NCBI RefSeq assembly: GCF_058153355.1 | Contig: NZ_CM177019.1 | DNA: 64,000 bases | Reading direction: 5' to 3' (one strand) | Part shown: piece by piece, positions 5,163 through 64,000 of the stretch | Layout of the letters: every line of letters begins with the position of its first letter | Numbering within the stretch: the stretch's first letter is position 1 | Program-made: the position numbers and the translations under genes | The notes under the pieces: model-generated | What the model saw: only the letters and a program-made list of their open reading frames with translations | Database searches by the model: none | Told to the model about the DNA's origin: nothing

Positions 5163-5872
5163 AAATCGAACTGACGGTGAATGGATTGAAGGTACAGGCG
5201 CAGTACCCGAACGAAGAGATTGAAAATGTGCATAAACCGTTGCTGCGTATGCTGGCAGCCTTACAGACGGTAAATCCGCAGCGGCGTACCGTGGTTTTTC
5301 TTTGCGCTCCGCCGGGGACGGGTAAATCTACCCTAACCACCTTCTGGGAATATCTCGCGCAACAAGACCCGGAACTACCCGCTATTCAGACGCTGCCGAT
5401 GGATGGTTTTCATCATTACAATAGCTGGCTGGATGCGCATCAATTGCGCCCCTTCAAAGGCGCACCAGAGACATTTGACGTTGCGAAACTGGCGGAAAAT
5501 CTGCGCCAGGTAATGGAAGGGGATTGTACGTGGCCGCAGTACGATCGACAAAAGCATGATCCTGTTGAAGATGCGTTGCACGTTACCGCACCACTCGTCA
5601 TCGTCGAAGGAAACTGGTTGTTGCTGGACGACGAGAAGTGGCGGGCGTTGGCATCGTTCTGCGATTTTTCTGTTTTTATTCATGCCCCCGTTCATATTCT
5701 GCGGGAACGCTTGATTAGTCGTAAAATTGCGGGGGGATTATCGCGGGATGAAGCCGAAGCTTTTTATGCCCGAACCGATGGTCCCAATGTCGAGCGTGTG
5801 CTGCTGAATAGTTGTCAGGCCAATCTGATATTAGAGATGACGGAAGAAGGCAGGTATCACTTCATAAGCTGA
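5159..5872 (+). CDS. yggC: P-loop nucleoside/pantothenate kinase-like protein
   Basis: 237-aa ORF with Walker A motif GTGKST; overlaps yggD stop by 4 bp. Confidence 0.8.
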   Translation: MKIELTVNGLKVQAQYPNEEIENVHKPLLRMLAALQTVNPQRRTVVFLCAPPGTGKSTLTTFWEYLAQQDPELPAIQTLPMDGFHHYNSWLDAHQLRPFKGAPETFDVAKLAENLRQVMEGDCTWPQYDRQKHDPVEDALHVTAPLVIVEGNWLLLDDEKWRALASFCDFSVFIHAPVHILRERLISRKIAGGLSRDEAEAFYARTDGPNVERVLLNSCQANLILEMTEEGRYHFIS

Positions 5873-6156
5873 CAATTTATTCCAGTTATTGCGTGGTTAT
5901 TATTACGCCAGTCTGGAATAAAGCCTCCTGCAAGAAGGGAAGAAAGTGTGATGCAAGTCAGATAATTGTCTTCTTTGACTGGACAATCATTCCTTTTATT
6001 CCACGTTTCGCTTATCCTAGCTGAAGCGTTTCAGTCGATTAAATGTTCGACAATTAACCAATCAGTCGCAGTTTGCGACAGGTAAGGTTTCCCCGGACGA
6101 TTTGCTGGATTACTCTGTCTGGCAAATTTGCTCAGGGAAAACCTTGCAGGAGATCT

Positions 6157-9747: not shown

Positions 9748-10996
<1,249 letters not shown>

Positions 10997-11026
10997 CATG
11001 CCTGCAATCTGGGAAACCGGGGTAGA

Positions 11027-11060
<34 letters not shown>

Positions 11061-24229: not shown

Positions 24230-24375
24230 TAGGATGGCGAGGCAGCATAGGGCTACAACGGTAAAGCCCTCACCGAAGCGAGGGCTTGAAGGAGAAGGGT
24301 TATGATGCGACTCGTCATCATACTGATTGTACTGTTACTCATAAGTTTCCCAGCTTATTAACAGTCAGTCACAGG
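24230..24375 (-). ncRNA. sibC: SibC antisense sRNA (antitoxin to ibsC); ends approximate
   Basis: Inferred from the known Sib/Ibs arrangement in which the sRNA fully overlaps the toxin ORF on the opposite strand; boundaries not determinable from sequence alone. Confidence 0.45.
24302..24361 (+). CDS. ibsC: type I toxin IbsC (19-aa hydrophobic peptide)
   Basis: GAAGGAGAAGGG Shine-Dalgarno then ATGATGCGACTCGTCATCATACTGATTGTACTGTTACTCATAAGTTTCCCAGCTTATTAA = MMRLVIILIVLLLISFPAY; too short for the ORF track. Confidence 0.8.
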   Translation: MMRLVIILIVLLLISFPAY

Positions 24376-24461
24376 GGAGGAGCAATCCTCCCTTACCCTT
24401 ACTCACTAAATTAGGTCAAAGAATCAACGATGTCAATCAGGGCGATGCAGGTGTGTCGCCC

Positions 24462-25082: not shown

Positions 25083-25268
25083 AGGGAATCTCCGAGATGC
25101 CGCCGCAGGCTGTAACCCTTGAACCCTTGGTTCAAGGTGAATGTGTCGTCACAGTTTTAAGGCTTCTCGGACGGACCGAGCATGCTCACCAACCGCGGAG
25201 CGCCACATTCTTGTGGTATGAAATATCGGCTCAGGGGACTGGCCCGCTTGCGAACATCTCAGAGAAAT
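25083..25268 (-). ncRNA. ssrS: 6S RNA
   Basis: Reverse complement reads ATTTCTCTGAGATGTTCGCAAGCGGGCCAGTCCCCTGAGCCGATATTTCATACCACAAGAATGTGGCGCTCCGCGG...GGAGATTCCCT, the 6S RNA sequence. Confidence 0.93.
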
Positions 25269-35104: not shown

Positions 35105-35307
35105 AAAGGCGCTTCGGCGCCTTTGACACTGATGTCAAACTCAACATTGCCTGATACACCTCGTTTATCAGGCCTACATAGTCTGTGCAATGTATTGAAT
35201 TTGCACGATTTTGTAGGCTGGATAAGGCGTTCACGCCGCATCCGGCATAATAAAAGCACTTTGTCATCAATAATTTGAAAGGCGCTTCGGCGCCTTTATT
35301 TTTTTAG
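35105..35307. repeat. BIME/REP cluster flanked by two copies of a terminator hairpin
   Basis: AAAGGCGCTTCGGCGCCTTT at 35105-35124 and again at 35277-35296, the second followed by a T-run; REP-like palindromes between them. Confidence 0.7.
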
Positions 35308-38745: not shown

Positions 38746-38776
<31 letters not shown>

Positions 38777-38806
38777 TCTACCCCGGTTTCCCAGATTGCA
38801 GGCATG

Positions 38807-40190
<1,384 letters not shown>

Positions 40191-51125: not shown

Positions 51126-52574
51126 TTATTCTCCATGCTCATTTTTCTTCAGCTTGCGCATCAGAAGCCACATACGTACTGTCCTGACTTTTAAATCTTT
51201 ATCAGAGACGGATTCCTTCACCAGATCAGCATGATGCTGATAGCCATTAAAGAAGACGTTCAGCGCAACGGCGCTAAGGGTTGCGAGCATAATGCCGCTA
51301 TGCAGCAACGGTTGCAGTACGGCCGGTAACTTAGAAAAGAAATCGTGAGAGAGCGTCGGAGTCATGCCAACGCCGAGACTGATCGCCACAATATAGAGGT
51401 TGTAACGGTTAGTGGTGTAGTTACAGCGCGACAGAATTCGAATCCCCGTCGCCAGTACCATGCCGAACATCACCAGCCCTGCGCCGCCAAGCACAAATTG
51501 CGGAATCGAGGCTACCAGCACCGCCATTTTGGGCACCATGCCAAACATGATTAATATGATCCCCGAAGAAATACACACCCAGCGACTATGAACGCGAGTC
51601 ACGCTAACCAGGCCAACGTTTTGAGAAAATGACGTGTGGGGGAAGCTGTTAAACGTTCCGCCTATCATTGTCCCTACACCATCGACACGCAGCCCGCGAA
51701 TAATATCGTGCGAAGAGAGTTTACGACCGACTATTTCACCCAGTGCCAGGAACATCCCCATCGACTCGATAAACACGATGATTAACACAGCGGTCATGGT
51801 TAGAATAGAAACGGGGTCAAATACCGGCATACCAAACGACATTGGGGTGACAATCGCAAACCACGAAGCATCATGTAGCCCGGACAAATTGACTTCATTC
51901 ATCATCCACGAAAGTAAAAAGCCAAATACAATCCCCAGTAATACGGCGACGTTGGACATAAATCCTTTCGCATAGCGAGTAATGAGCAAGATAAAAATTA
52001 AGACGGCAAAGGAGATACCTAAATAAACGGGATTACCATATTGCGGATTCCCTTCACCTCCAGCGGCCCAGTCAATACCGACCTGAATAATGCTAAGCCC
52101 GATAGAAGTAATAACCACACCGGTAACCAGTGGCGGGAATAAAGGCATTAAGCGACCGATAAGTGGTGCTAATAATGTGGTGATAAATCCCGCGGCGATA
52201 GTGGCACCAAATATCCCCAGCAGGCCGATATCCGGGTTCATGCCAATGGCTATCATTGGTGTTACAGCAGCAAAGGTTACCGACATAATCACCGGCAGAC
52301 GGATCCCCATAAAGCGGCCGATACCGATACATTGTAATAATGTGACGATCCCGCAGCAAAAGAGATCCGAGCTAATGAGCATCGCAATAGCTTCTTTTGA
52401 GAGGCCCAGTCGGTCACCAATCATAAGAGGAACAGCGACTGCACCTGCGTACATTACAAGGACGTGTTGCAGACCGAGTATGATCAGCTTTCCTGGTGAT
52501 AATATGCGGTCAACCTCATCAGTTGGGCGGTCTTGCCCTGAAGATGAGGGAAGTTGGGAATCTATGGCGCTCAT
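51126..52574 (-). CDS. uacT: uric acid:proton symporter (NCS2 family)
   Basis: Start at 52574 (MSAIDSQLPSSSGQDR); 482 aa. Confidence 0.88.
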   Translation of the reverse strand: MSAIDSQLPSSSGQDRPTDEVDRILSPGKLIILGLQHVLVMYAGAVAVPLMIGDRLGLSKEAIAMLISSDLFCCGIVTLLQCIGIGRFMGIRLPVIMSVTFAAVTPMIAIGMNPDIGLLGIFGATIAAGFITTLLAPLIGRLMPLFPPLVTGVVITSIGLSIIQVGIDWAAGGEGNPQYGNPVYLGISFAVLIFILLITRYAKGFMSNVAVLLGIVFGFLLSWMMNEVNLSGLHDASWFAIVTPMSFGMPVFDPVSILTMTAVLIIVFIESMGMFLALGEIVGRKLSSHDIIRGLRVDGVGTMIGGTFNSFPHTSFSQNVGLVSVTRVHSRWVCISSGIILIMFGMVPKMAVLVASIPQFVLGGAGLVMFGMVLATGIRILSRCNYTTNRYNLYIVAISLGVGMTPTLSHDFFSKLPAVLQPLLHSGIMLATLSAVALNVFFNGYQHHADLVKESVSDKDLKVRTVRMWLLMRKLKKNEHGE

Positions 52575-53009
52575 CAGTGTTTCTCCTTTCGCCCGCCAGA
52601 GTAAAAAGCAACCGTTTACGTTATTGAAACTGTCTAAACATATGCTCGTGGAGTGCCAGTTTTTGCGAGGAAGGGGAGTTAGAGACAGGAATTGCGGAGG
52701 CAATCACATAATCGTGGTTAAACCACGAAAATGAGAAGAGAACCTGACAATGGAATTATCTGTAATTTTCTCATATTGATATTTTATTAATCATTCTGGC
52801 ATGTCGCACTCTCGCATTTAATCGTTTTTATCTGGATAGCGCTCTTTTGGTCGGCAATGTTGAAATAATGAAAGCGGCACAGATTGAGGGGCAATAATTT
52901 GAACTCAGTCGCAAAATTATAATTAAAACGGTCATGCTACCTAATATATGCCCGTTTATTGCATCGCGAACTTTGAGAAGACATAACTCATTAAATGAAA
53001 GGGATGCAA

Positions 53010-54929
53010 ATGAATAAGTTTATCGCTGCTGAAGCTGCGGAATGTATAGGCTGTCATGCTTGTGAAATTGCCTGTGCGGTGGCACATAATCAAGAAAACT
53101 GGCCGCTGAGTCACAGTGACTTTCGACCGCGTATCCACGTTGTAGGGAAAGGCCAGGCTGCGAATCCGGTGGCCTGCCATCATTGCAACAATGCCCCTTG
53201 CGTTACGGCTTGTCCGGTTAATGCTCTGACTTTCCAGCCCGATAGCGTACAACTGGACGAGCAAAAATGTATTGGTTGTAAAAGATGCGCAATCGCTTGC
53301 CCCTTTGGCGTCGTTGAGATGGTCGATACGATTGCGCAGAAATGCGACCTTTGTAACCAGCGCAGTTCCGGCACGCAAGCCTGTATTGACGTATGCCCAA
53401 CACAGGCGTTACGGCTGATGGACGATAAAGGGTTGCAGCAGATAAAGGTGGCCCGCCAGCGCAAAACGGCAGCAGGAAAAGCGTCATCAGACGCTCAGCC
53501 ATCTCGCAGTGCAGCGTTGCTCCCCGTTAACTCGCGTAAAGGCGCAGATAAAATTTCAGCGAATGAACGGAAAACCCACTTTGGCGAAATTTATTGCGGG
53601 CTGGATCCACAACAAGCGACTTATGAGAGTGACCGCTGTGTTTATTGCGCCGAAAAAGCTAACTGCAACTGGCATTGCCCGCTGCATAACGCTATTCCGG
53701 ATTACATCCGTCTGGTGCAGGAAGGAAAGATTATTGAAGCGGCAGAACTTTGCCACCAGACCAGTTCCTTACCAGAAATCTGCGGCAGGGTATGTCCACA
53801 GGACCGTCTTTGTGAAGGCGCATGTACTTTGAAAGATCACTCTGGCGCAGTCTCTATCGGGAATCTGGAACGCTACATCACCGATACCGCGCTGGCGATG
53901 GGCTGGCGTCCTGATGTCAGCCATGTTGTTCCCCGTATCGAAAAAGTGGCGGTGATTGGCGCAGGGCCTGCAGGGTTAGGGTGTGCTGATATTCTGGCGC
54001 GCGCAGGAGTTCAGGTTGATGTCTTTGATCGCCATCCAGAAATTGGCGGTATGCTGACTTTTGGCATACCTCCTTTCAAACTCGATAAAACGGTATTAAG
54101 CCAGCGGCGAGAGATATTCACCGCAATGGGAATCGACTTTCATCTTAACTGTGAAATTGGCCGCGATATTACCTTTAGCGATTTAACTTCTGAATATGAT
54201 GCAGTTTTCATCGGCGTGGGGACTTACGGGATGATGCGAGCAGATCTGCCGCATGAAGATGCGCCCGGTGTCATTCAGGCTCTACCGTTCCTGACTGCCC
54301 ATACCCGCCAGCTCATGGGGTTGCCGGAGTCTGAAGAGTATCCGCTGACGGATGTGGAAGGTAAGCGAGTTGTGGTATTGGGCGGTGGCGATACGACCAT
54401 GGATTGTTTGCGGACTTCCATCCGCCTCAATGCCGCCAGCGTGACCTGCGCCTATCGTCGTGATGAAGTCAGTATGCCGGGCTCGCGCAAAGAGGTGGTC
54501 AATGCGCGCGAGGAAGGTGTCGAGTTTCAGTTCAATGTTCAGCCGCAATATATCGCTTGTGACGAAGATGGGCGTTTAACTGCGGTGGGCCTGATTCGTA
54601 CCGCTATGGGGGAGCCGGGGCCGGATGGTCGCCGTCGTCCTCGTCCGGTAGCGGGTTCAGAGTTTGAGCTGCCCGCCGATGTTCTGATTATGGCCTTTGG
54701 TTTCCAGGCGCATGCCATGCCGTGGTTGCAAGGCAGCGGAATTAAGCTCGATAAATGGGGCCTGATTCAAACCGGGGACGTCGGGTATTTACCCACCCAG
54801 ACGCATCTGAAAAAAGTCTTTGCTGGTGGTGATGCAGTTCATGGCGCGGATCTGGTCGTCACTGCAATGGCTGCAGGAAGGCAAGCGGCGCGCGATATGT
54901 TAACTCTGTTTGATTCGAAGGCATTGTGA
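53010..54929 (+). CDS. ygfT: fused 4Fe-4S ferredoxin / GltD-like NAD(P)H oxidoreductase
   Basis: Start at 53010 ([19 protein letters not shown]); 639 aa; multiple CxxCxxCxxxCP clusters and FAD/NAD GxGxxG motifs. Confidence 0.88.
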
Positions 54930-55417
54930 TGAAATCGTTAATTGTCGTTAATCCGGCTGATTGTATTGGCTGCCGTACTTGTGAAGTAGCCTGTGTGGTC
55001 GCTCATCCTTCAGAACAGGCGTTGAATGCCGATGTCTTTTTACCCCGGCTGAAGGTACAGCGACTGGACTGCATCAGTGCGCCGGTGATGTGCCATCAGT
55101 GTGAAAACGCCCCTTGTGTTGGCGCTTGCCCCGTGGGAGCGCTGACGATGGGCGAGCAGGTGGTGCAGGCCAATTCTGCCCGTTGTATTGGCTGTCAGAG
55201 TTGCGTCAGTGCGTGCCCGTTTGGGATGATAACCATTCAGTCGTTGCCGGGGGATACCCGGCAACAAATTGTGAAATGCGATCTCTGTGAACAGCGGGAA
55301 GAGGGGCCTGCCTGCGTTGAATCTTGCCCGACACAGGCACTGCAGTTGCTTACTGAAAGAGAACTCAGGCGAGTCCGCCAGCAGCGTATTGTTGCCAGCG
55401 GTGAGAATCCTCTCTGA
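54926..55417 (+). CDS. ygfS: 4Fe-4S ferredoxin-type protein
   Basis: About 162 aa; overlaps ygfT stop; four Cys clusters. Confidence 0.85.
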
Positions 55418-55419
55418 AA

Positions 55420-55451
55420 GAATTCTCCGCGCTGAAAGGCGCGGAGAATCT
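55420..55451. terminator. bidirectional terminator between convergent ygfS and ghxQ
   Basis: Perfect palindrome ATTCTCCGCGC...GCGCGGAGAAT. Confidence 0.65.
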
Positions 55452-55452
55452 A

Positions 55453-56820
55453 TTAGATAGCCCATCCACCCGCGTAAAATGCGACCAGTGCGGCAGTAAT
55501 GATTACCGTACCAATATTCAGCTTTTGCCATTCGCGTGCAAAGACGCGGCCTACGACCAGTGTCACAAAGCCCAGCATAATACCGGTAACGATATTACAA
55601 GTCAGAACGATAAACACGGCACACACCAGGCCAGCCATTGCGTCAATAAAATCGTTGAAATCCAGCTTCGAGACGTTACTTAACATCAGCAAACCTACGT
55701 ACATCAGAGCGGGTGCAGTGGCGTAACCAGGGATCAAAAATGACAGTGGTGATAAAAACAGAATCAACAGGAATAACGCCCCCACTACGGTTGCGGTCAA
55801 CCCTGTTTTACCCCCGGCGGCGGTTCCTGCCGCTGATTCGATATAAACCGCTGCGGGCGCAGCACCCACCAGGCCGGAGAATATTGAACTTACTGAGTCA
55901 CTGGTCAGGGCTTTACCGCCGTTGATGATCTGGTTGTCTTTATCTAACAAATTCGCCTGACCGGCGACGGCACGGATGGTACCGGTGGCGTCGAACACTG
56001 CGGTCATCACCAATGCCAGTACACTCGGAAGTACAGTTGGCTGGAGTGCCCCCATAATATCGAGGCTGAAAATCAGAGACTTACCATCTTCGCCAGTCAG
56101 ACTGGGCATCGCCACCAGACCGTGGTACTTCACCGCTGGATCAAAGATTAAGCCGATGATCGAAATTGCAATAATCACCAACAAGATCCCGCCAGGTACG
56201 CGGCACTTTTCCAGACCGAAGATGACCGCCAGACCCAGTAAGCTCATCATCACCGGGAAGGAGGTAAACGCGCCGAGCGCCACCGGCAAGCCTTCAATCG
56301 GGTTTTTGATAACCATTCCCACACCGTTAGCAGCAATCAGCAGCAGAAACAGGCCGATACCGATACCTGTGCCGTGAGCGATACCCATCGGTAAATTACG
56401 TAATATCCAGGTTCGCACACCGGTTACAGAAATGGCGGTGAAGATGACGCCCATCAGAAAGACCGCGCCCAGTGCGACAGGAACGCTAATTTGTTGCCCG
56501 AGTACCAGACTGAATGCGGTAAATGCCGTTAAGGAAATAGCGCAACCAATCGCCATTGGCAAGTTGGCCCACAAGCCCATCAGCAACGAGCCGAAGCCCG
56601 CGACCAGACAGGTGGCAACAAACACAGCTGCGGGAGGAAAACCTGCTTTGCCCAGCATTCCCGGAACGACGATAACGGAATAAACCATGGCCAGAAAGGT
56701 CGTTAAGCCAGCCAGTACTTCCTGACGAACGGTACTGCCACGAGCGGTAATTTTAAAATAATTATCCAGCGCGCCTTGTGGCTTTGGTGCGTCCGGTGTT
56801 TGTAGGATGTCTCCAGACAT
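55453..56820 (-). CDS. ghxQ: guanine/hypoxanthine permease
   Basis: 455-aa membrane ORF. Confidence 0.88.
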
Positions 56821-56855
56821 AATGATGTCCTCACGAGGATGTTAAAGTTTTATTA

Positions 56856-58175
56856 TTAGTTGCGTTCGTACACCAGACGACCATCAACGTAGGTGCGGTA
56901 GATCGAACGGTCATCGCCCAACGTCATCATCACGAACAATTTGTCGACTAAAGAAACAGAGTTGTCATAGCGCAGCTGCTGTAGCGGGGTGGCGGTGGGT
57001 TCCATCACCACGAAATCAGCCTCTTTGCCAGGTAAAAAGTTGCCAATCAAATCGTCAAGGCCCAGAGATTTCGCCCCGCCGAGCGTGGCAAGGTAAAACG
57101 CTTCATATGCCGAGAGGCGATAGCCTTGTAATTGCAACACTTTGTAGGCTTCGTTCAGCGTTTGCAGCATGTTGAAAGTTGTTCCTGCGCCAATGTCAGT
57201 CCCCATGCCCACTTTGACTTTCTTCTGCCATGCTTTTTTCAAGTTGAATAAGCCACTGCCGAGGTAAAGGTTGGAGGTAGGACAGAAAGCAATGCTGGAT
57301 TTGGTTTCGCTGAGACGATCCCACTCTTTCTCTTCGAGATGGACGCAGTGAGCAAAGACACAATTTTTACCTGTCAGACCGTACTGATGGTAAACATCCA
57401 AATAACCATCATGGTCAGGATAAAGCGATTTGACCCAGGCAATTTCATCTTTATTTTCACAAAGATGGGTATGTACCCATGTGTCGGGATACTCTTCTTT
57501 CAGGCGTTGCGCCATCGCCATCTGTTCAGGAGATGAGGTTGGGGCGAAGCGTGGCGTAATCGCATACAACAGACGACCATTTTTGTGCCAGCGTTCGATC
57601 AGTTCTTTGCTTTGGTGATAGCTGCTTTCGGCAGTGTCGAGCAGATAATCCGGTGCGTTGCGGTCCATCATCACCTTACCGGCAATCATACGCATATTGA
57701 TATGACTGGCGGCTTCAAACAGCGCATCAACGGATTGCGGATGAACGGTACCAAACACCAACGCTGTGGTGGTTCCGTTACGTAAAAGCTGCTTGATGAA
57801 GAACGCCGACATTTCGCGGGCGTACTCTAAATCCTCATAACGACGTTCAGTAGGGAAGGTGTGTTTATTCAACCACTCCAACAATTGTTCACCATAGGCC
57901 CCAACCATTTCACTTTGCGGATAATGGATATGTGTATCGACAAAGCCCGGTACTACCAGTTTGCCGCGATAGTCGCGCACGCGAATGGTGTCAGGAATTT
58001 GATGCTTTCCGTCTTCCCATTCGCCAAACCATTCCACTTTTCCCTGTTTAATGAGTAATAAACCATCCTCAATAAACCGCAGCGCAGAGGCAATCTCTTC
58101 CGGGTTATCGACCGTACGGGTGACATCAATAAAACTGCCTCGTACCGCTTTTAACGTGTGTTCTCCTGACATCAT
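56856..58175 (-). CDS. guaD: guanine deaminase
   Basis: Start at 58175 (MMSGEHTLKAVRGSF); 439 aa; amidohydrolase HxH metal motif. Confidence 0.9.
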   Translation of the reverse strand: MMSGEHTLKAVRGSFIDVTRTVDNPEEIASALRFIEDGLLLIKQGKVEWFGEWEDGKHQIPDTIRVRDYRGKLVVPGFVDTHIHYPQSEMVGAYGEQLLEWLNKHTFPTERRYEDLEYAREMSAFFIKQLLRNGTTTALVFGTVHPQSVDALFEAASHINMRMIAGKVMMDRNAPDYLLDTAESSYHQSKELIERWHKNGRLLYAITPRFAPTSSPEQMAMAQRLKEEYPDTWVHTHLCENKDEIAWVKSLYPDHDGYLDVYHQYGLTGKNCVFAHCVHLEEKEWDRLSETKSSIAFCPTSNLYLGSGLFNLKKAWQKKVKVGMGTDIGAGTTFNMLQTLNEAYKVLQLQGYRLSAYEAFYLATLGGAKSLGLDDLIGNFLPGKEADFVVMEPTATPLQQLRYDNSVSLVDKLFVMMTLGDDRSIYRTYVDGRLVYERN

Positions 58176-58189
58176 TGACTCCTTTACTG

Positions 58190-59590
58190 TTAATCCATCT
58201 CTTCCGCTGAGGTAATACCAGGCAGAACGTTTTCCTGTCGGTAGCCACCAGGGAGGATAATATTTAATAAAATCGCAGTTAATCCACCAGCACAAATAGG
58301 GTTTTCAACTAATACATAAATAGAGGCTGGCAATATTTTAAAAATTTCCGGGTCGTAGGAGACGCCAAGCCCTAAACCTAAAGAAGTGGCGACAATAAGT
58401 GTTTCACGGCGCTTTAATCCGTTGGTGATGATGATGCGAATCCCAGCGATGGCAATCATGGAAAACATCAACGTCATTGCGCCTCCCAGAACAGCCGAGG
58501 GAATGGTCGTGAAGAAGCCGCCAATCATCGGAAACAAGCCGAGAATAACCAACATGACCGCGATGGTTCGCCCGACATAACGTGAAGCGACACCGGTCAT
58601 CTGAATAACCCCATTATTTTGCGCAAACGTGGTTAACGGTAATGAACCGACAGCGGAAGCGATAACCGAAACCAGGCCATCTGCCAGTACGCCGCCTTTC
58701 AGACGCGACTGATACTCTTCTCCCTGGATGGGGCGGCGGGAAACCATTGCCGTGGCGGTGATATCACCGACAGCTTCCAGCACGCTAAGCAAATAAATCG
58801 TGCCGACCACCAGGAACTGATGGAAGCTGAAACTAAACCCGTATTTGAACGGATGCGGGATGGTGATTAACGGCAAATTGCGCATACTGCTGAAATCCAC
58901 CATGCCCAGGCATAACGACGCGATATAACCGACACATAGCCCAATGGCAATCCCTCCCATGCGTAGTAACGGACTGCGGCAGCAGTTAAAGCCGATCACC
59001 ACAATCAAAACCAATAAACCAACGCCGAGATGTTCGTAATTGCCGAACGTACCGCTGCTTTTGGCAGCAAATCCTCCACCAAAATCGATAATGCCGACTT
59101 TAATCAGGCTTAAGCCGATCATCAGCACCACAATGCCGCTAACGGTAGGTGTAATAACCCGACGTAAATAGGGCAGGATAAAAGAAGAGCCGACAACCAG
59201 AAATGCGCCAACGAAGGAGACGCCGAGAAGCGACGACATGATTAACTCTTCGTGAAAACCATCGCTTTTCATGCTGCTGCCCAGCGCAATCATGACTGTA
59301 ACAAATGAAAAATTGACTGACTGAATTGAGAGTAGGCCAGAACCGACGATGCCATAGCGGTTTACCTGTAACCAGGTACCAATACCAGAGGCGATCATCG
59401 CCATAGAAACAAGATAGGCGGTTGTTTCAGCGGAAAGCTGTAAGGCCGCACCCACGATTAACGCAGGGGTTACCATCGGAACGAAAATTGCCAACAGATG
59501 GGTAATGGCACCAACGAGAGCCTGATGAAAGGGAGGGCGATCCTCCAGTTCAAATATAAGGTCAGAACCTGCATGGTTTATATCAGACAT
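58190..59590 (-). CDS. xanQ: xanthine permease (NCS2 family)
   Basis: Start at 59590 (MSDINHAGSDLIFELEDRPPF); 466 aa. Confidence 0.9.
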   Translation of the reverse strand: MSDINHAGSDLIFELEDRPPFHQALVGAITHLLAIFVPMVTPALIVGAALQLSAETTAYLVSMAMIASGIGTWLQVNRYGIVGSGLLSIQSVNFSFVTVMIALGSSMKSDGFHEELIMSSLLGVSFVGAFLVVGSSFILPYLRRVITPTVSGIVVLMIGLSLIKVGIIDFGGGFAAKSSGTFGNYEHLGVGLLVLIVVIGFNCCRSPLLRMGGIAIGLCVGYIASLCLGMVDFSSMRNLPLITIPHPFKYGFSFSFHQFLVVGTIYLLSVLEAVGDITATAMVSRRPIQGEEYQSRLKGGVLADGLVSVIASAVGSLPLTTFAQNNGVIQMTGVASRYVGRTIAVMLVILGLFPMIGGFFTTIPSAVLGGAMTLMFSMIAIAGIRIIITNGLKRRETLIVATSLGLGLGVSYDPEIFKILPASIYVLVENPICAGGLTAILLNIILPGGYRQENVLPGITSAEEMD

Positions 59591-59717
59591 CCCTTCACTC
59601 CTTTTAAAGTAAATTTGATCATCTGAATCAGTAAAATAAATTCCCACGAATTTGGGGCGCAGGACGCCTTGAGAACGGCTTATCTCATTTTCGCAGTCAA
59701 CTATTTAGTCATCGTTC

Positions 59718-59746
59718 AAACAGAGAAACAGGCCGCCGAAGCGGCC
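59718..59746 (-). terminator. putative terminator downstream of xdhD
   Basis: GGCCGCTTCGGCGGCC hairpin followed on the minus strand by a T-rich tract. Confidence 0.45.
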
Positions 59747-59755
59747 ATTTATTAT

Positions 59756-62626
59756 TTATATTTTTTCCAGCGCGGTGAGTATTTTCTCCGGTGTGAAATG
59801 CCATTCGCGTAACCAGATGCCGCAGGCATCGTGAATTGCGGTAGCAATCGCCGGAGCTGCGCCATTTACACCGATTTCTGAGATTGATTTCGCCCCGAAT
59901 GGGCCGACTTTATCGTCGCTCGGCACCAGCACAGCGCGGAAATCACGCGGAATGTCACCAATTTTCGGTGCGCCGTAACTGCGTAAATCACGCGTTAACG
60001 GGTGGCCTTCGGCGTCATAAATGATTTCTTCGCTCATACTGTGCCCGATAGCACGCAGGGTGGCTCCGTAGATTTGTCCCAACGCTAACTCTGGATTGAC
60101 CGGTGTACCACAGTCCAGCAAGGCGTAGAATTTATCCAGGCGGATTTCACCCGTACGTGTGTTGACGGCAACTTCAGCAAAGTTTGCGCCATACGGGAAG
60201 GCGAAATCAGGCGTGATATAACTGGCAGTTCCCACCAGTGAACCAAAACCGGTGCCGGTTTCGCCTTTATGGGCAATATCCCCGAAACTAACTTCGCCTT
60301 TCTTGCCGCGCACGACGCCCGGCGTTGCTAGTTGAACATCTGCCACTGGCTCACCCAACATTTGCGCGCCGTGGAACAGAATTTTATCCCGCAGATTTTC
60401 CGCTGCCAAACGCGCCGCGTTACCCGAGAAGCAAGTACCGGACGAGGCATATGCGCCTTTATCAAACAACGCATGATCGGTATCACCGGAGATAACATGC
60501 ACGTCCTGCGGTGGGCAGTGCAGCACTTCTGCTGCCAGTTTCGTCACCACGGTATCCAGACCAGTACCAATATCCGCACCGCCAGAATGAACAATAAAGG
60601 TACCGTCCGATTCCAGTTTAATCATGCAGTTAGCCTGATCGATATCCGGGATCCCCGATTTCTGCATGATAATGGCGACGCCGCGACCGATGTGCCAGTC
60701 ACCATTTTGCGGTTTTGGTGAAGACCATTGGATCATCTCGCGACCCTGACGCAGGATCTCTTCCAGCGCGCAGCTGGCGGCGGAAGGAACGGAGGTCGGC
60801 GCTTTACCTTCACCAATCGCACCGAGAATTTTCAGCTCTTGCCCTTCGTGTACCCGGTTACGTTCGATAATTTCCAGTTGGTCGATCTGTAACTGTTCAG
60901 CCAGTTCCGCTAATGCCATGGTGATAGCGAAGTTACCTTTCGGTGCGCCATAACCCTGATAAGCACCATTTGGGCAAATGTTGCTGTAGTAGGTGGTGAC
61001 CTGGAAATCGACGTTATCGCACGGATATAACGGCAGCGACAGCGCCGGTCCGTTACACGGTACGGTGAGTGAGTGGTTGCCGTAAGGGCCTGTGTTGGCG
61101 CGGAAATCCATCTTCACAGCCGTCAGGCGACCATCTTTCTTTGCCCCCAGTTTGACGGTGACTTTCGCGACGTGACGAGAGGTGTTAGCAATAAACTCTT
61201 CTTCACGGGTGTAGCGGAACAGTACCGGACGCCCGGTCACGCGGGTTGCCCAGGCGCACACTTCTTCCAGCAGGATGTCCTGTTTGGAACCAAAACCACC
61301 GCCTACGCGTTCTTTAATGACATGAACTTTATGTTGTTTCATGCCCACGAGGCGCGCAACCTGGCGGCGCAAGTGCCATGGTACCTGGGTGGAGGCGTGG
61401 ATCACCAGACGGTCGCCATCCATACGGGTAAAGCAGATATGTGTTTCAGTCGGGCATTGCTGCGCCTGAGTTGAGTTATAGGTTCGTTCAATGATCACAT
61501 CGGCATCGGCAAAGCCTTTATCCATATCGCCAATATGACCATGAATACTGGCGGCGATATTTTTACGAGGGCGAGAACCGATAGGGAAGTTGATGATCAT
61601 ATGCTCGCCGCGCTGGGCTGCATGGCTGTTATCGTCTTCCAGAGTGTCTGGCGCACCCGCCACATACACCACCGGTTCATCGTGTACGACAGGCGCATCT
61701 TCCGCCATTGCCTCGTCAATCGACATTACCGGCTTAAGCACTTCATATTCAACGTCGATGAGCTTCAGTGCTTCGAGCGCAATTTCTTCACTTTCAGCGA
61801 CTACCGCAGCAACGCGATCGCCGACGTGACGCATTTTCTTGCCGAACATACGGCGGTCAAGCGGTGACGGTTCCGGTGCGCTCTGACCACCCGGGGTATA
61901 GTAGATATCCGGGCAATTCAGGTGAGTAATAACGTGAACGACGCCCGGTAAGGCTTCAGCTTTGCTGACATCCAGATGAGTAATCAGTGCGTGAGCGTGT
62001 GGGCTACGTAACATTTTAATGACGCAGGCGTCAGCCGTTACGCGGTCTTCAACATAGCAGGGTTTCGCCTGCACCATTTTTGCGGCATCAGTTTTAGGAT
62101 AATGCTTACCAATGACTTCAAGGTCATCGCGGAAAGTCGGAGCGATATCAATGGTGGCCTGCGGGTTATTTTTACGTGCAATTGCCAGTTCAACGACCTG
62201 ATAGTATTGTTGCCAGCCTGCATCGCGACTGAACAAACCAGAAAGCGCGTCGTCGATCTCTTCGCGGGTCGGTGCGGCGATACGCTCGAGCAGATCAGTG
62301 ATAATCAGAGCAGCAGCAGGATCGTTATAACCAGACTGCACCACGCCAACATCAACCATTGCCTGTTGAACCAGACTTAACTCGTTCCATTTTCCCAGAG
62401 ACTCTGCCGTACGAATATCAGCCTTCTCTATCTGTGCGGCAATAAGTAAGGACGCGTTAACGATATTACCGTTAAAGATAATTGCGTCAGAACCGGCAAA
62501 CCCGAATCCATCATCGCTGTTGCGTACAGAGTGCATTCCCATGTTAAACAACAGCTTTTGCACGTTTTCGCCTGGATTAACGGTTAGCTCCTGAGGCGCG
62601 CCATTTAAAGTAAAGTGGATGATCAT
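59756..62626 (-). CDS. xdhD: molybdopterin-dependent hydroxylase, fused Fe-S/Mo-binding subunit
   Basis: 956-aa ORF. Confidence 0.9.
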   Translation of the reverse strand: MIIHFTLNGAPQELTVNPGENVQKLLFNMGMHSVRNSDDGFGFAGSDAIIFNGNIVNASLLIAAQIEKADIRTAESLGKWNELSLVQQAMVDVGVVQSGYNDPAAALIITDLLERIAAPTREEIDDALSGLFSRDAGWQQYYQVVELAIARKNNPQATIDIAPTFRDDLEVIGKHYPKTDAAKMVQAKPCYVEDRVTADACVIKMLRSPHAHALITHLDVSKAEALPGVVHVITHLNCPDIYYTPGGQSAPEPSPLDRRMFGKKMRHVGDRVAAVVAESEEIALEALKLIDVEYEVLKPVMSIDEAMAEDAPVVHDEPVVYVAGAPDTLEDDNSHAAQRGEHMIINFPIGSRPRKNIAASIHGHIGDMDKGFADADVIIERTYNSTQAQQCPTETHICFTRMDGDRLVIHASTQVPWHLRRQVARLVGMKQHKVHVIKERVGGGFGSKQDILLEEVCAWATRVTGRPVLFRYTREEEFIANTSRHVAKVTVKLGAKKDGRLTAVKMDFRANTGPYGNHSLTVPCNGPALSLPLYPCDNVDFQVTTYYSNICPNGAYQGYGAPKGNFAITMALAELAEQLQIDQLEIIERNRVHEGQELKILGAIGEGKAPTSVPSAASCALEEILRQGREMIQWSSPKPQNGDWHIGRGVAIIMQKSGIPDIDQANCMIKLESDGTFIVHSGGADIGTGLDTVVTKLAAEVLHCPPQDVHVISGDTDHALFDKGAYASSGTCFSGNAARLAAENLRDKILFHGAQMLGEPVADVQLATPGVVRGKKGEVSFGDIAHKGETGTGFGSLVGTASYITPDFAFPYGANFAEVAVNTRTGEIRLDKFYALLDCGTPVNPELALGQIYGATLRAIGHSMSEEIIYDAEGHPLTRDLRSYGAPKIGDIPRDFRAVLVPSDDKVGPFGAKSISEIGVNGAAPAIATAIHDACGIWLREWHFTPEKILTALEKI

Positions 62627-63402
62627 ACGGCTTCCTCCCCAGCCTGTTGGCAGTCGGCATAAAGGTCGGCTACCAGAACTCCCGTGATATAGCGTTTATA
62701 GGCCACGCTGCCCCGCAAATCTTCCTGCGGGAAAATGGCGTTGGCGACAGCCTGTTCAAGGGCATCGCCTTCCAGGTTTTGTTTTTCAACATCGTGCAGA
62801 CGCAGTGCTTTACTGGCCACGCCATCCAACGCAATTCGCATACCGTCGTGATCGGTTAACGCAACGGCTGCCGTTACTACCGTTAACCCAGCCTGAGAAC
62901 GGCTAATTTTGCGAGTCGCACAGGTGCGATACGGATCTTTAATGATGATTTCGGTTAGCAGGCGATCGCATGGGCAGGCCAGGTACTCCTCAATTGACAG
63001 AGTTTCACCGTTGCCAAAAACCAGTTCGGCATCCAGTGCCAGCAGGACGGGAAGCAGCACCGACTCTTCCTGCCGGGCGGCGATTTCACCACCAATGGTC
63101 GACTGATTACGAATATGGCGAGAGTAGACAAAGCCGAGAGCCTCACGCAGTGCTGCAGGAATAAACCGTGCATCACGCAGTGTTTGCAAGCGAGACATCG
63201 CGCCAATCCGCAATGCACCGTTATCCCAGTCAACCCAGTCCAGTTCCAGATCCTGTAAGGATATGGCAATCTTTTTATCGGTACGGGTTGGTGTGGCGTT
63301 GAGTTTACTGCCTCCGGCAAACCAGACAGCTTCATCCTGATAGCGGCGCTTCAGTTCCAGCGCCTGTTCGACAGAGTCGGGTCTGAAAAATTGTTCAATC
63401 AT
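62623..63402 (-). CDS. ygfM: FAD-binding subunit of molybdenum hydroxylase
   Basis: 259-aa ORF overlapping xdhD start by 4 bp. Confidence 0.85.
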   Translation of the reverse strand: MIEQFFRPDSVEQALELKRRYQDEAVWFAGGSKLNATPTRTDKKIAISLQDLELDWVDWDNGALRIGAMSRLQTLRDARFIPAALREALGFVYSRHIRNQSTIGGEIAARQEESVLLPVLLALDAELVFGNGETLSIEEYLACPCDRLLTEIIIKDPYRTCATRKISRSQAGLTVVTAAVALTDHDGMRIALDGVASKALRLHDVEKQNLEGDALEQAVANAIFPQEDLRGSVAYKRYITGVLVADLYADCQQAGEEAV

Positions 63403-63452
63403 CTTCTTTCCTTATTTAACCCTCTTCCTTTAAGGAAGAGGGTATCTGTCAT

Positions 63453-64000
63453 TTATGCCAGCGCATCCATCCGACGCCACATAGCAGCGGCGGCTTTTTG
63501 GGCTTGCGCATAAATGGAATCGCAATCGAAGTTAAACTGACGGTCTTCATAGACCATAACGCCGTTGACCATCACGCTGTGGACGCTGCCTGAACCCATG
63601 CCGAAAGCGATATGTCCAGCGATATTGTCTGCCAGCAGTGGCGTCGGCGAGTTGTAATCGCAAATGGTTAAATCGGCTTTATAACCGGTTTCCAGCAGGC
63701 CAAATTTCGCGCCAAAGTTGCGGCTCATCAGTTCGTTGCCGTTAGCCAGAGCTTTGGCAAAGCTGTCAGGCCACAGCGGACCACCCGCATCGCGATGTTT
63801 AAAGAAGGCAAATTTCATCTCTTCAAACATATCTGAACCAATACCGTCCGTACCCAACGCCAGATTGCGGATGTCGCAAAGATGATGGTTGTAGCCGACA
63901 TGGTTGTTCATGTTTGAACGGGCGTTATGCACCAGGAATGCATCACGCTGATTGAGCAACGCGATGTCGTCTTTAGACAGATAAAGCCCATGAGCGACCA
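63453..64000 (-). CDS. ssnA: amidohydrolase-family protein SsnA, C-terminal part; 5' end beyond window
   Basis: Open minus-strand frame from the window end to the stop at 63453; last 168 aa listed in the ORF track. Confidence 0.8.
   Translation of the reverse strand, partial: VAHGLYLSKDDIALLNQRDAFLVHNARSNMNNHVGYNHHLCDIRNLALGTDGIGSDMFEEMKFAFFKHRDAGGPLWPDSFAKALANGNELMSRNFGAKFGLLETGYKADLTICDYNSPTPLLADNIAGHIAFGMGSGSVHSVMVNGVMVYEDRQFNFDCDSIYAQAQKAAAAMWRRMDALA

Follow-up and report, generated by a model that had tools for sequence, protein, structure and literature searches.

An Escherichia coli purine and urate utilization locus and the cysteine-free "[2Fe-2S]" domain of its molybdenum hydroxylase XdhD

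Anaerobic urate degradation, a process relevant to gut urate clearance and gout, has recently been traced to a gene island in the chromosome of Escherichia coli. In the work of Li et al. 2025, the molybdenum enzyme XdhD, which co-purifies with a protein of ~30 kDa taken to be YgfM, converts urate to 2,8-dioxopurine ("yanthine") in the presence of reduced nicotinamide adenine dinucleotide (NADH); YgfK and SsnA reduce 2,8-dioxopurine and open the ring, and HyuA, YgeW, YgeY and YgeX then carry the product on to pyruvate (PMC12507026). The same pathway was described independently by Liu et al. 2025, who linked it to selenium-dependent molybdenum hydroxylases (bioRxiv 10.1101/2025.04.24.650524), and a commentary sums up both studies (PMC12990295). 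Here we examine a locus of this kind in a stretch of 64,000 nucleotides (nt) of contig NZ_CM177019.1 (RefSeq assembly GCF_058153355.1), hereinafter the window, of which positions 52995-64000 carry ygfT, ygfS, ghxQ, guaD, xanQ, xdhD, ygfM and the 3' part of ssnA (Table 1). Since this locus has already been characterized in work published in 2019-2025, the gene cluster itself adds nothing new; the value of the analysis is that of an annotation check, which bears on the size of one gene overlap (1 base pair (bp), not 4 bp), on the number of transcription units, which are probably several, and on the name of XdhD, whose designation as a "Mo/Fe-S-binding subunit" is contradicted by its sequence.

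The clostridial counterpart of this system, the uricolytic cluster of C. sporogenes and C. difficile with XdhAC (DOPDH), follows the same pathway logic, shares SsnA, HyuA, YgeY and YgeX, and also starts with the conversion of urate to 2,8-dioxopurine by a molybdenum enzyme of the xanthine dehydrogenase (XDH) family. However, the clostridial enzyme has no subunit for flavin adenine dinucleotide (FAD), makes no use of NAD(P)H and has been described with iron-sulfur (Fe-S)-binding domains, and it is only for the C. sporogenes enzyme that selenium dependence has been shown (bioRxiv 10.1101/2025.04.24.650524). In contrast, the E. coli type has kept the FAD subunit and lacks Fe-S ligands; C. difficile XdhD is ~25% identical to E. 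coli XdhD. Within the E. coli island, XdhABC (b2866-b2868), a member of the same superfamily, converts xanthine to urate, which XdhD then converts to 2,8-dioxopurine; XdhABC comprises XdhC with all eight cysteine ligands of the two [2Fe-2S] clusters and a full-length FAD subunit, XdhB.

The closest described relative of the locus is the corresponding segment of E. coli K-12 MG1655 (b2878-b2888), which has the same gene order, orientation, lengths and junctions, along with a nearly identical control region and terminator hairpin; the window differs in the loop of the ssnA-ygfM hairpin and in having an additional T between xdhD and xanQ. The eight genes are free of internal stops and match their K-12 counterparts in length (ssnA for the part inside the window). 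The nucleotide divergence from K-12 is 2-8%, nearly all of it synonymous, and the ratio of nonsynonymous to synonymous substitution rates (dN/dS) is 0.00-0.13; judged by these values, the cluster genes are functional and under strong constraint, that is, purifying selection relative to K-12. A megablast search of 5426 complete E. coli genomes found a match in 5208 and a coverage of at least 80% of the 11-kb stretch in 5163, so that the neighborhood is not a chance arrangement. The closest match, 99.6% identical, is a goat isolate (NZ_CP074749), most other E. coli genomes being 95-99% identical; the coordinates were mapped from the RefSeq annotation of this isolate and from K-12 MG1655. Past position 64000, the syntenic genomes continue with ygfK, adjoined by mocA, yqeC and yqeB. 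The order of the eight genes, as transferred from RefSeq and checked against the open reading frames, is that proposed in an earlier, sequence-only reading of this DNA, their strands are as expected, and domain searches against Pfam and NCBIfam, run on XdhD, YgfT and the other products, together with RefSeq synteny, support every gene assignment made there. Taken together, these data lead us to assign a probability of roughly 0.9 to the interpretation of positions 52995-64000 as the distal third of the E. coli chromosomal purine/urate utilization island.

Under this interpretation, three functional blocks can be envisaged. In the first, ygfT-ygfS, an Fe-S flavoprotein and a HydN-like ferredoxin would feed formate-derived reducing power into urate degradation. 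The second, xanQ-guaD-ghxQ, would serve for import of xanthine, guanine and hypoxanthine and for deamination of guanine to xanthine. The third, (ygfK)-ssnA-ygfM-xdhD, would cover the beginning of the anaerobic 2,8-dioxopurine pathway: XdhD-YgfM would remove the C6 oxygen of urate to yield 2,8-dioxopurine, YgfK would reduce this product and SsnA would hydrolyze the ring, with the island enzymes outside the window taking the ring-opened product to pyruvate, ammonia and carbamoyl phosphate. The enzymatic and genetic activities, the sigma-54 binding and the co-expression invoked here all come from the experiments of others, and we infer that they apply to this strain; this transfer rests on proteins that differ from their K-12 counterparts at 0-7 residues each. 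The description "purine salvage/catabolism cluster" given in the sequence-only reading is correct but outdated, inasmuch as xdhD-ygfM-ssnA, ygfT and uacT have been placed, in the 2019-2025 work, in the pathway of anaerobic reductive urate degradation.

The assignment of XdhD, in which 7 of 956 residues differ from K-12, is carried by TIGR03313 (2115 bits against a cutoff of 1102, model positions 1-951), by the MoCoBD_1 (E=2e-73) and MoCoBD_2 (E=1e-67) domains, and by the hammerhead domain Ald_Xan_dh_C (E=3e-31). Residue E917 in the motif GAKSISE, which we take to be the equivalent of the catalytic glutamate Glu1261 of the bovine enzyme, is invariant in 43 family sequences; E606 is also present and invariant in the 43 aligned relatives. 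A published, as yet unproven model proposes that Glu606 orients urate for C6 dehydroxylation (PMC12507026). YgfM matches TIGR03312 (486 bits against a cutoff of 241.5, positions 1-257) and FAD_binding_5 (E=3e-20) and retains the FAD motifs FAGGSKL and RNQSTIGG, its C-terminal match to CO_deh_flav_C being weak (23.3 bits, under the cutoff of 25.5 bits), and the ssnA fragment matches TIGR03314 and NF005540 at model positions 258-444.

Two older names compete with the assignment of these proteins to urate reduction. Under the annotation that survives in RefSeq and TIGRFAM names, YgfK-YgfM-XdhD would be a selenate reductase, as the NCBIfam designations Se_sel_red_Mo, Se_sel_red_FAD and Se_ygfK and the gene table of Haft and Self 2008 have it. 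This is extremely improbable in the light of the reconstitution and mutant metabolite data, which attribute the conversion of urate to 2,8-dioxopurine to XdhD and the reduction of 2,8-dioxopurine to YgfK; moreover, the link to selenium is better accounted for by a selenium-dependent molybdenum cofactor (Moco; YqeB/YqeC/SelD) than by selenate as a substrate. The K-12 GenBank product name, "fused putative xanthine/hypoxanthine oxidase", would make XdhD a (hypo)xanthine oxidase of purine salvage, a role with which the co-location with guaD, xanQ and ghxQ agrees. We regard this as highly improbable because an xdhA deletion mutant with intact xdhD cannot consume xanthine, whereas deletion of xdhD leaves xanthine consumption in place but causes urate to build up, with no 2,8-dioxopurine being formed (PMC12507026).

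The control elements of the locus are consistent with its membership in the island. Chromatin immunoprecipitation sequencing (ChIP-seq) has located sigma-54 sites upstream of xdhA, ygeW, ygfK and ygfT (PMC4591121), and the site upstream of ygfT (OS32), TATGCCCGTTTATTGCA, is matched exactly at 52947-52963 on the + strand, in the uacT-ygfT spacer, where 6 of 435 positions differ from K-12 as compared to 2-8% in coding DNA. YgeV, which is annotated as a sigma-54-dependent activator, lends its name to a co-expression group, the YgeV iModulon, that includes xdhABC, ygeWXY, hyuA, ygfK, ssnA, ygfM, xdhD, ygfT and uacT; xanQ, guaD, ghxQ and ygfS are not among its members, so that the gene run ends at xdhD.

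The feature of this locus that does not fit the family to which it belongs is the N-terminal part of XdhD. Residues 1-165 are homologous to the [2Fe-2S] small subunits of molybdenum hydroxylases, with an end-to-end alignment to NdhS (3hrd_D, E=7e-17), and Fer2_2 of Pfam matches residues 73-145 (E=2e-12), yet there is not a single cysteine in residues 1-180. In an alignment with NdhS, E. coli XdhC and close homologues that have eight cysteines, the eight ligand columns are occupied by D, A, D, S and S, N, S, D: in the first-cluster motif, GC..ECGAC is replaced by SD..FAGSD, and the fourth ligand C by S, and in the second-cluster motifs, VQCGYCTPG and NLCRCTGY are replaced by VQSGYNDPA and LFSRDAGW, respectively. 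A Pfam search of XdhD gave no match to Fer2 (PF00111), whereas neighboring true small subunits do match this family. XdhD of K-12 likewise lacks the ligands, its N-terminal domain differing from that of the window only by L66I, D114E, I145V and V149I. The open-access literature that we searched contains no mention of the missing cysteines or Fe-S clusters of XdhD/YgfN, although their absence is plainly visible in the public K-12 sequence.

The loss of the ligands has not been accompanied by loss of the domain. The dN/dS ratio of the N-terminal domain relative to K-12 is 0.047, and an AlphaFold2 model of XdhD has a mean predicted local distance difference test score (pLDDT) of 90.8, with the blocks of the N-terminal domain at 79-96; by both of these indicators, the domain is not decaying. 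The model resembles the aldehyde oxidoreductases of D. gigas and D. desulfuricans (MOP; 1sij, 1dgj) with TM-scores of 0.84-0.89 and Foldseek E-values down to 1e-77. MOP, which combines two N-terminal [2Fe-2S]-type domains and the Moco domains in one chain, is the best structural match of the model over ~990 columns, at a sequence identity of 24-25%. However, MOP carries two [2Fe-2S] clusters and works without an FAD partner (PMC3958847 notes the absence of the FAD domain), whereas XdhD has YgfM as its FAD partner and lacks the ligands. Thus, XdhD is a family homologue by virtue of its fold and Moco domains and, because none of its eight ligand positions holds a cysteine, is not a canonical enzyme with Mo, two [2Fe-2S] clusters and FAD. 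The earlier description of the neighborhood as one of Fe-S and molybdenum hydroxylase genes accordingly holds for the Fe-S proteins YgfT and YgfS and for the molybdenum domains of XdhD, and fails for the "2Fe-2S" domain of the latter.

That XdhD-YgfM is nevertheless an enzyme of the canonical xanthine oxidase type, with Moco, two [2Fe-2S] clusters and FAD, is implied by the RefSeq product name and by published modeling on R. capsulatus XDH, and one could cite in its favor the Fer2_2 match, the end-to-end alignment of the N-terminal 165 residues with solved [2Fe-2S] subunits, the full-length superposition of the AlphaFold2 model on D. gigas aldehyde oxidoreductase and the reported NADH-dependent formation of the product (PMC12507026). 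The lack of cysteine in the first 180 residues, the replacement in all eight ligand columns and the missing PF00111 match leave this possibility next to no probability. In addition, relatives down to ~50% identity share the replacement pattern, which therefore reflects neither a sequencing error nor a defect of this particular strain. At the level of sequence, the canonical Fe-S reading of XdhD is refuted.

How widespread the loss of ligands is can be judged from the relatives of XdhD, which were searched for among 1.84 billion representative proteins. A separate search with the N-terminal domain returned short fragments only, informative for ligand patterns and for a few organism names and not for gene context. 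Most of the fused relatives (~900-980 residues) retain all eight cysteines, several at ~50% identity are cysteine-less, and one keeps the ligands of the second cluster only (D-G-D-G-C-C-C-C). When one genome per GTDB species was scanned, 80 loci were recovered, 57 of which were kept after a contiguity filter; among these, 32 are cysteine-less, 17 have all the cysteines, 6 have half of them and 2 are of other types. An apparent all-cysteine pattern in Aeromonas (L048) was discarded as an artefact, xdhD being cut at the start of the contig.

The cysteine-less type with the pattern D-[ACTV]-D-[SNG]-S-N-x-x is found in the Gammaproteobacteria Kluyvera, Edwardsiella, Hafnia, Arsenophonus, Aeromonas, Photobacterium and Endozoicomonas, and the E. 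coli ligand pattern occurs also in a Rhodocyclaceae metagenome-assembled genome (MAG) that groups with Gammaproteobacteria, in many Spirochaetes, in Clostridiales/Lachnospiraceae/Oscillospiraceae and in a Bacteroidetes MAG. All eight cysteines are retained, at an equal level of identity (52-57%), in other Spirochaetes and in MAGs of Dependentiae, Phycisphaerales and Terriglobia; the half form is seen in Anaerolineae, and a second cysteine-less pattern, S/A-T-x-D/E-S-S-D-E, in Chloroflexi, Acidimicrobiia and Acidobacteria. In a neighbor-joining tree of the Moco part, which is rough and has no support values, the ligand types fall into separate clades. This placement suggests that the cluster ligands have been lost at least two or three times.

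Close homologues that have kept the eight cysteines share the urate gene context of the cysteine-less ones. The order ssnA-ygfM-xdhD recurs in seven loci of the gammaproteobacterial group (two of Edwardsiella, and one each of Hafnia, Aeromonas, Arsenophonus, Endozoicomonas and the Rhodocyclaceae MAG), and in Spirochaetes xdhD has ssnA, ygfK, ygeW and ygeY nearby, the same neighbors at cysteine-less and all-cysteine loci. Since the neighbors are the same and E606 is invariant in the 43 relatives, we treat the cysteine-less and all-cysteine proteins as having the same function. In all three types, a gene for a YgfM-like FAD subunit with the motifs AGG[ST] and RNxxTxGG lies directly upstream of xdhD. 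Genes for cysteine-containing [2Fe-2S] subunits are found near 13 of the 32 cysteine-less loci and 3 of the 17 all-cysteine loci. The idea that an orphan [2Fe-2S] subunit replaces the lost clusters was rejected as a general explanation because these genes adjoin their own genes for Mo and FAD subunits, as checked with Pfam for three loci (L024, L036 and L038) and as indicated by the same layout, judged by reading frame size or sequence, in Kluyvera and Photobacterium; we read the extra genes as parts of neighboring XdhABC-like sets. At eight loci (L008, L013, L023, L024, L031 and L036-L038), which span Kluyvera, Photobacterium, Clostridiales and Spirochaetes, the ygfM-like gene and the cysteine-less xdhD are immediately preceded by the genes of a second, canonical XDH with Mo, FAD and eight-cysteine [2Fe-2S] subunits, as confirmed with Pfam for L024, L036 and L038 and as deduced from reading frame size or sequence for the rest. 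If xanthine were oxidized to urate with NAD+ and urate then converted to 2,8-dioxopurine at the expense of NADH, the two reactions together would be redox-neutral.

The absence of ligands poses the question of the electron supply to the molybdenum site. In the xanthine oxidase family, electrons pass between FAD and Moco through two [2Fe-2S] clusters; in bovine XDH, the hops are ~8, 12 and 15 Å, and the direct distance from FAD to pterin is well beyond the usual tunneling range. Because XdhD has no Fe-S ligands, this two-cluster wire is not available between the FAD of YgfM and Mo.

Several points, of which this is one, weigh against the interpretation of the stretch as a part of the urate island that functions as published. 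The published path from NADH via the FAD of YgfM to Moco would, going by the sequence, have no Fe-S relay in XdhD, and the NADH-dependent activity itself comes from an end-point assay by liquid chromatography-mass spectrometry with 10 uM enzyme and no rate (PMC12507026), so that a very slow transfer from NADH is compatible with the data. The sigma-54 element of ygfT is weak, its motif having been scored at 4.5 in the ChIP work (PMC4591121), and a search of the window for the sigma-54 consensus with up to 2 mismatches gave 33 matches against 44 expected and missed this published weak site. Finally, ygfK, hyuA, ygeWXY, yqeA, xdhABC and ygeV lie outside the window and are placed by synteny with NZ_CP074749 and K-12, the window showing, of the reductive-urate cluster genes, xdhD, ygfM and a part of ssnA.

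With respect to XdhD itself, we consider the odds somewhat better than even that the E. coli-type protein is naturally free of Fe-S, with folded "ghost" domains that are under purifying selection and whose ligands were lost at least twice, and with an FAD subunit that looks functional, and that its Mo receives electrons in vivo by a non-canonical route. The patterns left by the losses are D-x-D-x-S-N, S/A-T-x-D/E-S-S-D-E and, in a half-lost form, D-x-D-G-C-C-C-C. The electrons could then come from an external Fe-S donor to Mo, such as YgfT/YgfS or AegA linked to formate, or YgfK; alternatively, a reducing substrate could act at the molybdenum site itself. The NADH-driven activity in vitro would, in either case, be a slow side path. 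A further conceivable route is an unrecognized intramolecular path. Should biochemical work confirm that XdhD is Fe-S-free, the electron path now accepted for the committing first step would need to be revised, and the still unexplained Fe-S proteins YgfT, YgfS and AegA would be given a concrete job; this would also bear on the engineering of uricolytic probiotics, in which the electron supply to XdhD may be rate-limiting.

The candidate donors encoded in the window are the Fe-S proteins YgfT and YgfS. YgfT scores 1498 bits (cutoff 1154) with NF009451, "formate-dependent uric acid utilization protein YgfT", and consists of an N-terminal HydN-like ferredoxin domain (Fer4_11, 4Fe-4S dicluster) followed by a GltD-like part with Fer4_20 and an FAD/NAD(P)H domain (Pyr_redox_2); four groups of cysteines are located in residues 12-129, with more at 210-272, and the dinucleotide motif GAGPAG is at 317. 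YgfS, a 4Fe-4S dicluster protein with 16 cysteines in four groups, is 45% identical to residues 1-157 of YgfT (E=2e-40) and, by this alignment, is a paralogue of the N-terminal domain of YgfT. Its NCBIfam score is higher with the N-terminal domain of AegA (165 bits) than with that of the neighboring YgfT (137 bits). AegA (b2468), a YgfT paralogue, has the same architecture of a HydN-like ferredoxin and a GltD-like part, and both proteins are tied to formate-dependent urate use; aegA, however, is unlinked to the island and shows a modest induction by urate, whereas the response of ygfT to urate is strong, and this gene has an additional ferredoxin gene, ygfS, after it. The implication of YgfT/AegA in formate-dependent urate use and the strong induction of ygfT and ygfK by urate are cited here from a preprint (bioRxiv 10.1101/2022.07.24.501321), which refers to Iwadate and Kato 2019 for the former.

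Several 4-bp overlaps indicative of coupled translation had been claimed for the cluster in the sequence-only reading. One of these is certain: the stop of ygfM and the start of xdhD overlap in gtATGAtc (62623-62626). The ygfT/ygfS junction reads ttGTGATGaaa, and the overlap there is 4 bp (GTGA) on condition that GTG 54926, one codon upstream and in the same frame, is used; the annotated start, ATG 54929, gives a 1-bp overlap, TGATG. In favor of the latter, the first residues of the protein started at ATG 54929, as in both RefSeq annotations, pair one to one with those of YgfT (MKSLIV vs MNKFIA). The remaining junctions are gaps of 14 nt (xanQ-guaD), 35 nt (guaD-ghxQ), 50 nt (ssnA-ygfM) and 165 nt (xdhD-xanQ). 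Both ATGA of ygfM/xdhD and TGATG of ygfT/ygfS are stop/start overlaps of the kind presumed to couple translation, and such coupling of ygfM and xdhD, as suggested by their ATGA, fits the 1:1 complex of their products. Two starts allow for alternatives: the cluster was originally begun at 52995, which is the first ATG of the open frame of ygfT, whereas the RefSeq/K-12 start of this gene lies 15 nt later, at 53010, in agreement with the N-terminus MNKFI shared with YgfS and with the NCBIfam models of YgfT and AegA, which align from residue 1; guaD has tandem ATGs, giving 439 residues with the K-12 start or 438 residues with the start at 58172.

The seven minus-strand genes ygfK-ssnA-ygfM-xdhD-xanQ-guaD-ghxQ share a strand, the gaps at xanQ-guaD and guaD-ghxQ are short, ygfM and xdhD overlap, and a scan of the 165 nt between xdhD and xanQ gave nothing resembling a sigma-70 promoter above chance, all of which would suit a single operon with coupled translation throughout. 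We consider such an operon unlikely, however. There is just one true 4-bp overlap; the YgeV iModulon includes ygfK through xdhD without xanQ, guaD and ghxQ; and a GC hairpin (GGCCGC-TTCG-GCGGCC; -13.9 kcal/mol, z -3.4) begins 10 nt past the xdhD stop, before the 165-nt spacer, and is followed by a U-rich tract. This hairpin is a candidate terminator or attenuator that would divide xdhD from xanQ. Generic scans for sigma-70 promoters and terminators gave counts no higher than in shuffled sequence, the hairpin after xdhD being the only useful result. In the spacer itself (59591-59755), the extra T relative to K-12 (TAGTTGACT vs TAGTGACT) creates a -35-like hexamer, TTGACT, for which no good -10 partner was seen.

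Two further hairpins bear on the transcript ends. The palindrome between the convergent ygfS and ghxQ, which has one substitution relative to K-12, folds with -27.1 kcal/mol (z -6.3) on the + strand and -22.2 kcal/mol (z -5.8) on the - strand and likely represents a bidirectional terminator. The hairpin in the ssnA-ygfM spacer (-18.2 kcal/mol, z -4.7), with a conserved stem and a loop different from that in K-12, may be an intra-operon element of processing, stability or attenuation; the same junction contains unrelated strong GC hairpins in Edwardsiella and Aeromonas and none in Arsenophonus. Between 51 and 64 kb, an Rfam scan that covered the entire window gave no RNA family. Because of these hairpins and the published membership of the YgeV iModulon, the genes, although contiguous and in this sense the one neighborhood they had been taken for, probably form at least three transcription units, namely, ygfT-ygfS, ygfK-ssnA-ygfM-xdhD and xanQ-guaD-ghxQ, the last of these probably being a separate unit behind the hairpin.

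Table 1. Features of the purine/urate locus in the window (positions of the 64,000-nt stretch)
Feature	Position	Strand	Basis or remark
uacT (ygfU), urate:H+ symporter	51126-52574	-	RefSeq synteny; adjoins the cluster, same system, divergent from ygfT
uacT-ygfT divergent control region	52575-53009	.	carries the sigma-54 element
ygfT (uacF)	53010-54929	+	NF009451 equivalog, Pfam domains, Cys motifs
ygfS, 162 aa, ferredoxin-like	54929-55417	+	Fer4 families, HydN/AegA N-terminal matches
palindromic hairpin between convergent ygfS and ghxQ	55420-55450	.	fold energy on both strands
ghxQ, guanine/hypoxanthine NCS2 (AzgA-like) transporter	55453-56820	-	RefSeq name, Pfam
guaD, guanine deaminase	56856-58175	-	TIGR02967, Amidohydro_1
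xanQ, xanthine:H+ symporter	58190-59590	-	RefSeq name, TIGR00801
GC hairpin 3' of xdhD (candidate terminator or attenuator)	59731-59746	-	terminator scan, fold energy
xdhD, Mo subunit of the urate to 2,8-dioxopurine reductase	59756-62626	-	TIGR03313, domains, model, PMC12507026
XdhD residues 1-165, [2Fe-2S]-domain homologue without ligands	62132-62626	-	alignments
ygfM, FAD-binding subunit	62623-63402	-	TIGR03312, FAD_binding_5
ssnA-ygfM spacer hairpin	63419-63443	-	fold energy
ssnA, amidohydrolase, 3' part (C-terminal 181 codons)	63453 to beyond 64000	-	TIGR03314, NF005540, synteny; cut by the window end

The deaminase and the transporters are also supported by domain matches. GuaD matches TIGR02967 (633 bits against a cutoff of 375) and Amidohydro_1 (E=8e-80). 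XanQ, GhxQ and UacT share the Xan_ur_permease domain of the NCS2/NAT transporters (Pfam E-values from 1e-80, for GhxQ, to 9e-124, for UacT). At the level of NCBIfam, UacT matches TIGR03173 with 509 bits (cutoff 414), and XanQ matches TIGR00801, the NCS2 superfamily model, with 455 bits (cutoff 292) and falls just short of TIGR03173 (413.7 against a cutoff of 414.15); GhxQ had no NCBIfam match. The substrates of the three transporters are presumably those given by the RefSeq product names and the K-12 literature. XanQ and GhxQ have 48 and 46 nucleotide changes relative to K-12, respectively, and no amino acid change in either.

The ygfM-ssnA end of the window (62623-64000) is a rare allele: 5079 of 5177 E. 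coli genomes are 90-95% identical to it and 6 are at least 99% identical, the identity to 98% of the genomes being ~93%. The synonymous divergence (dS) from K-12 rises from 0.08 at ygfT to 0.27-0.37 at ygfM/ssnA, with dN/dS remaining at 0.03-0.05; judged from this gradient, the segment looks like an imported divergent haplotype.

Elsewhere in the window, two 100% identical copies of a 1295-bp element of the IS110 insertion sequence family, at 9763-11057 (+) and 38746-40040 (-), lie in inverted orientation ~28 kb apart; each encodes a 326-residue DEDD transposase (PF01548 and PF02371), both are absent from NZ_CP074749, and the second abuts a match to REP/naRNA4 at 40030-40107. At ~5803-5937, between the kinase gene on the fumE side and epd, the window is without a block of ~3.3 kb that is present in NZ_CP074749 and encodes an ECF transporter (two ATPases, T and S components) and a PPC-domain protein. 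The Rfam scan identified a Sib antitoxin RNA next to ibsC (24286-24436), 6S RNA (ssrS; 25085-25268) and the small RNA ES036/CssrF (35170-35212), all of which are expected features of this region of the chromosome.

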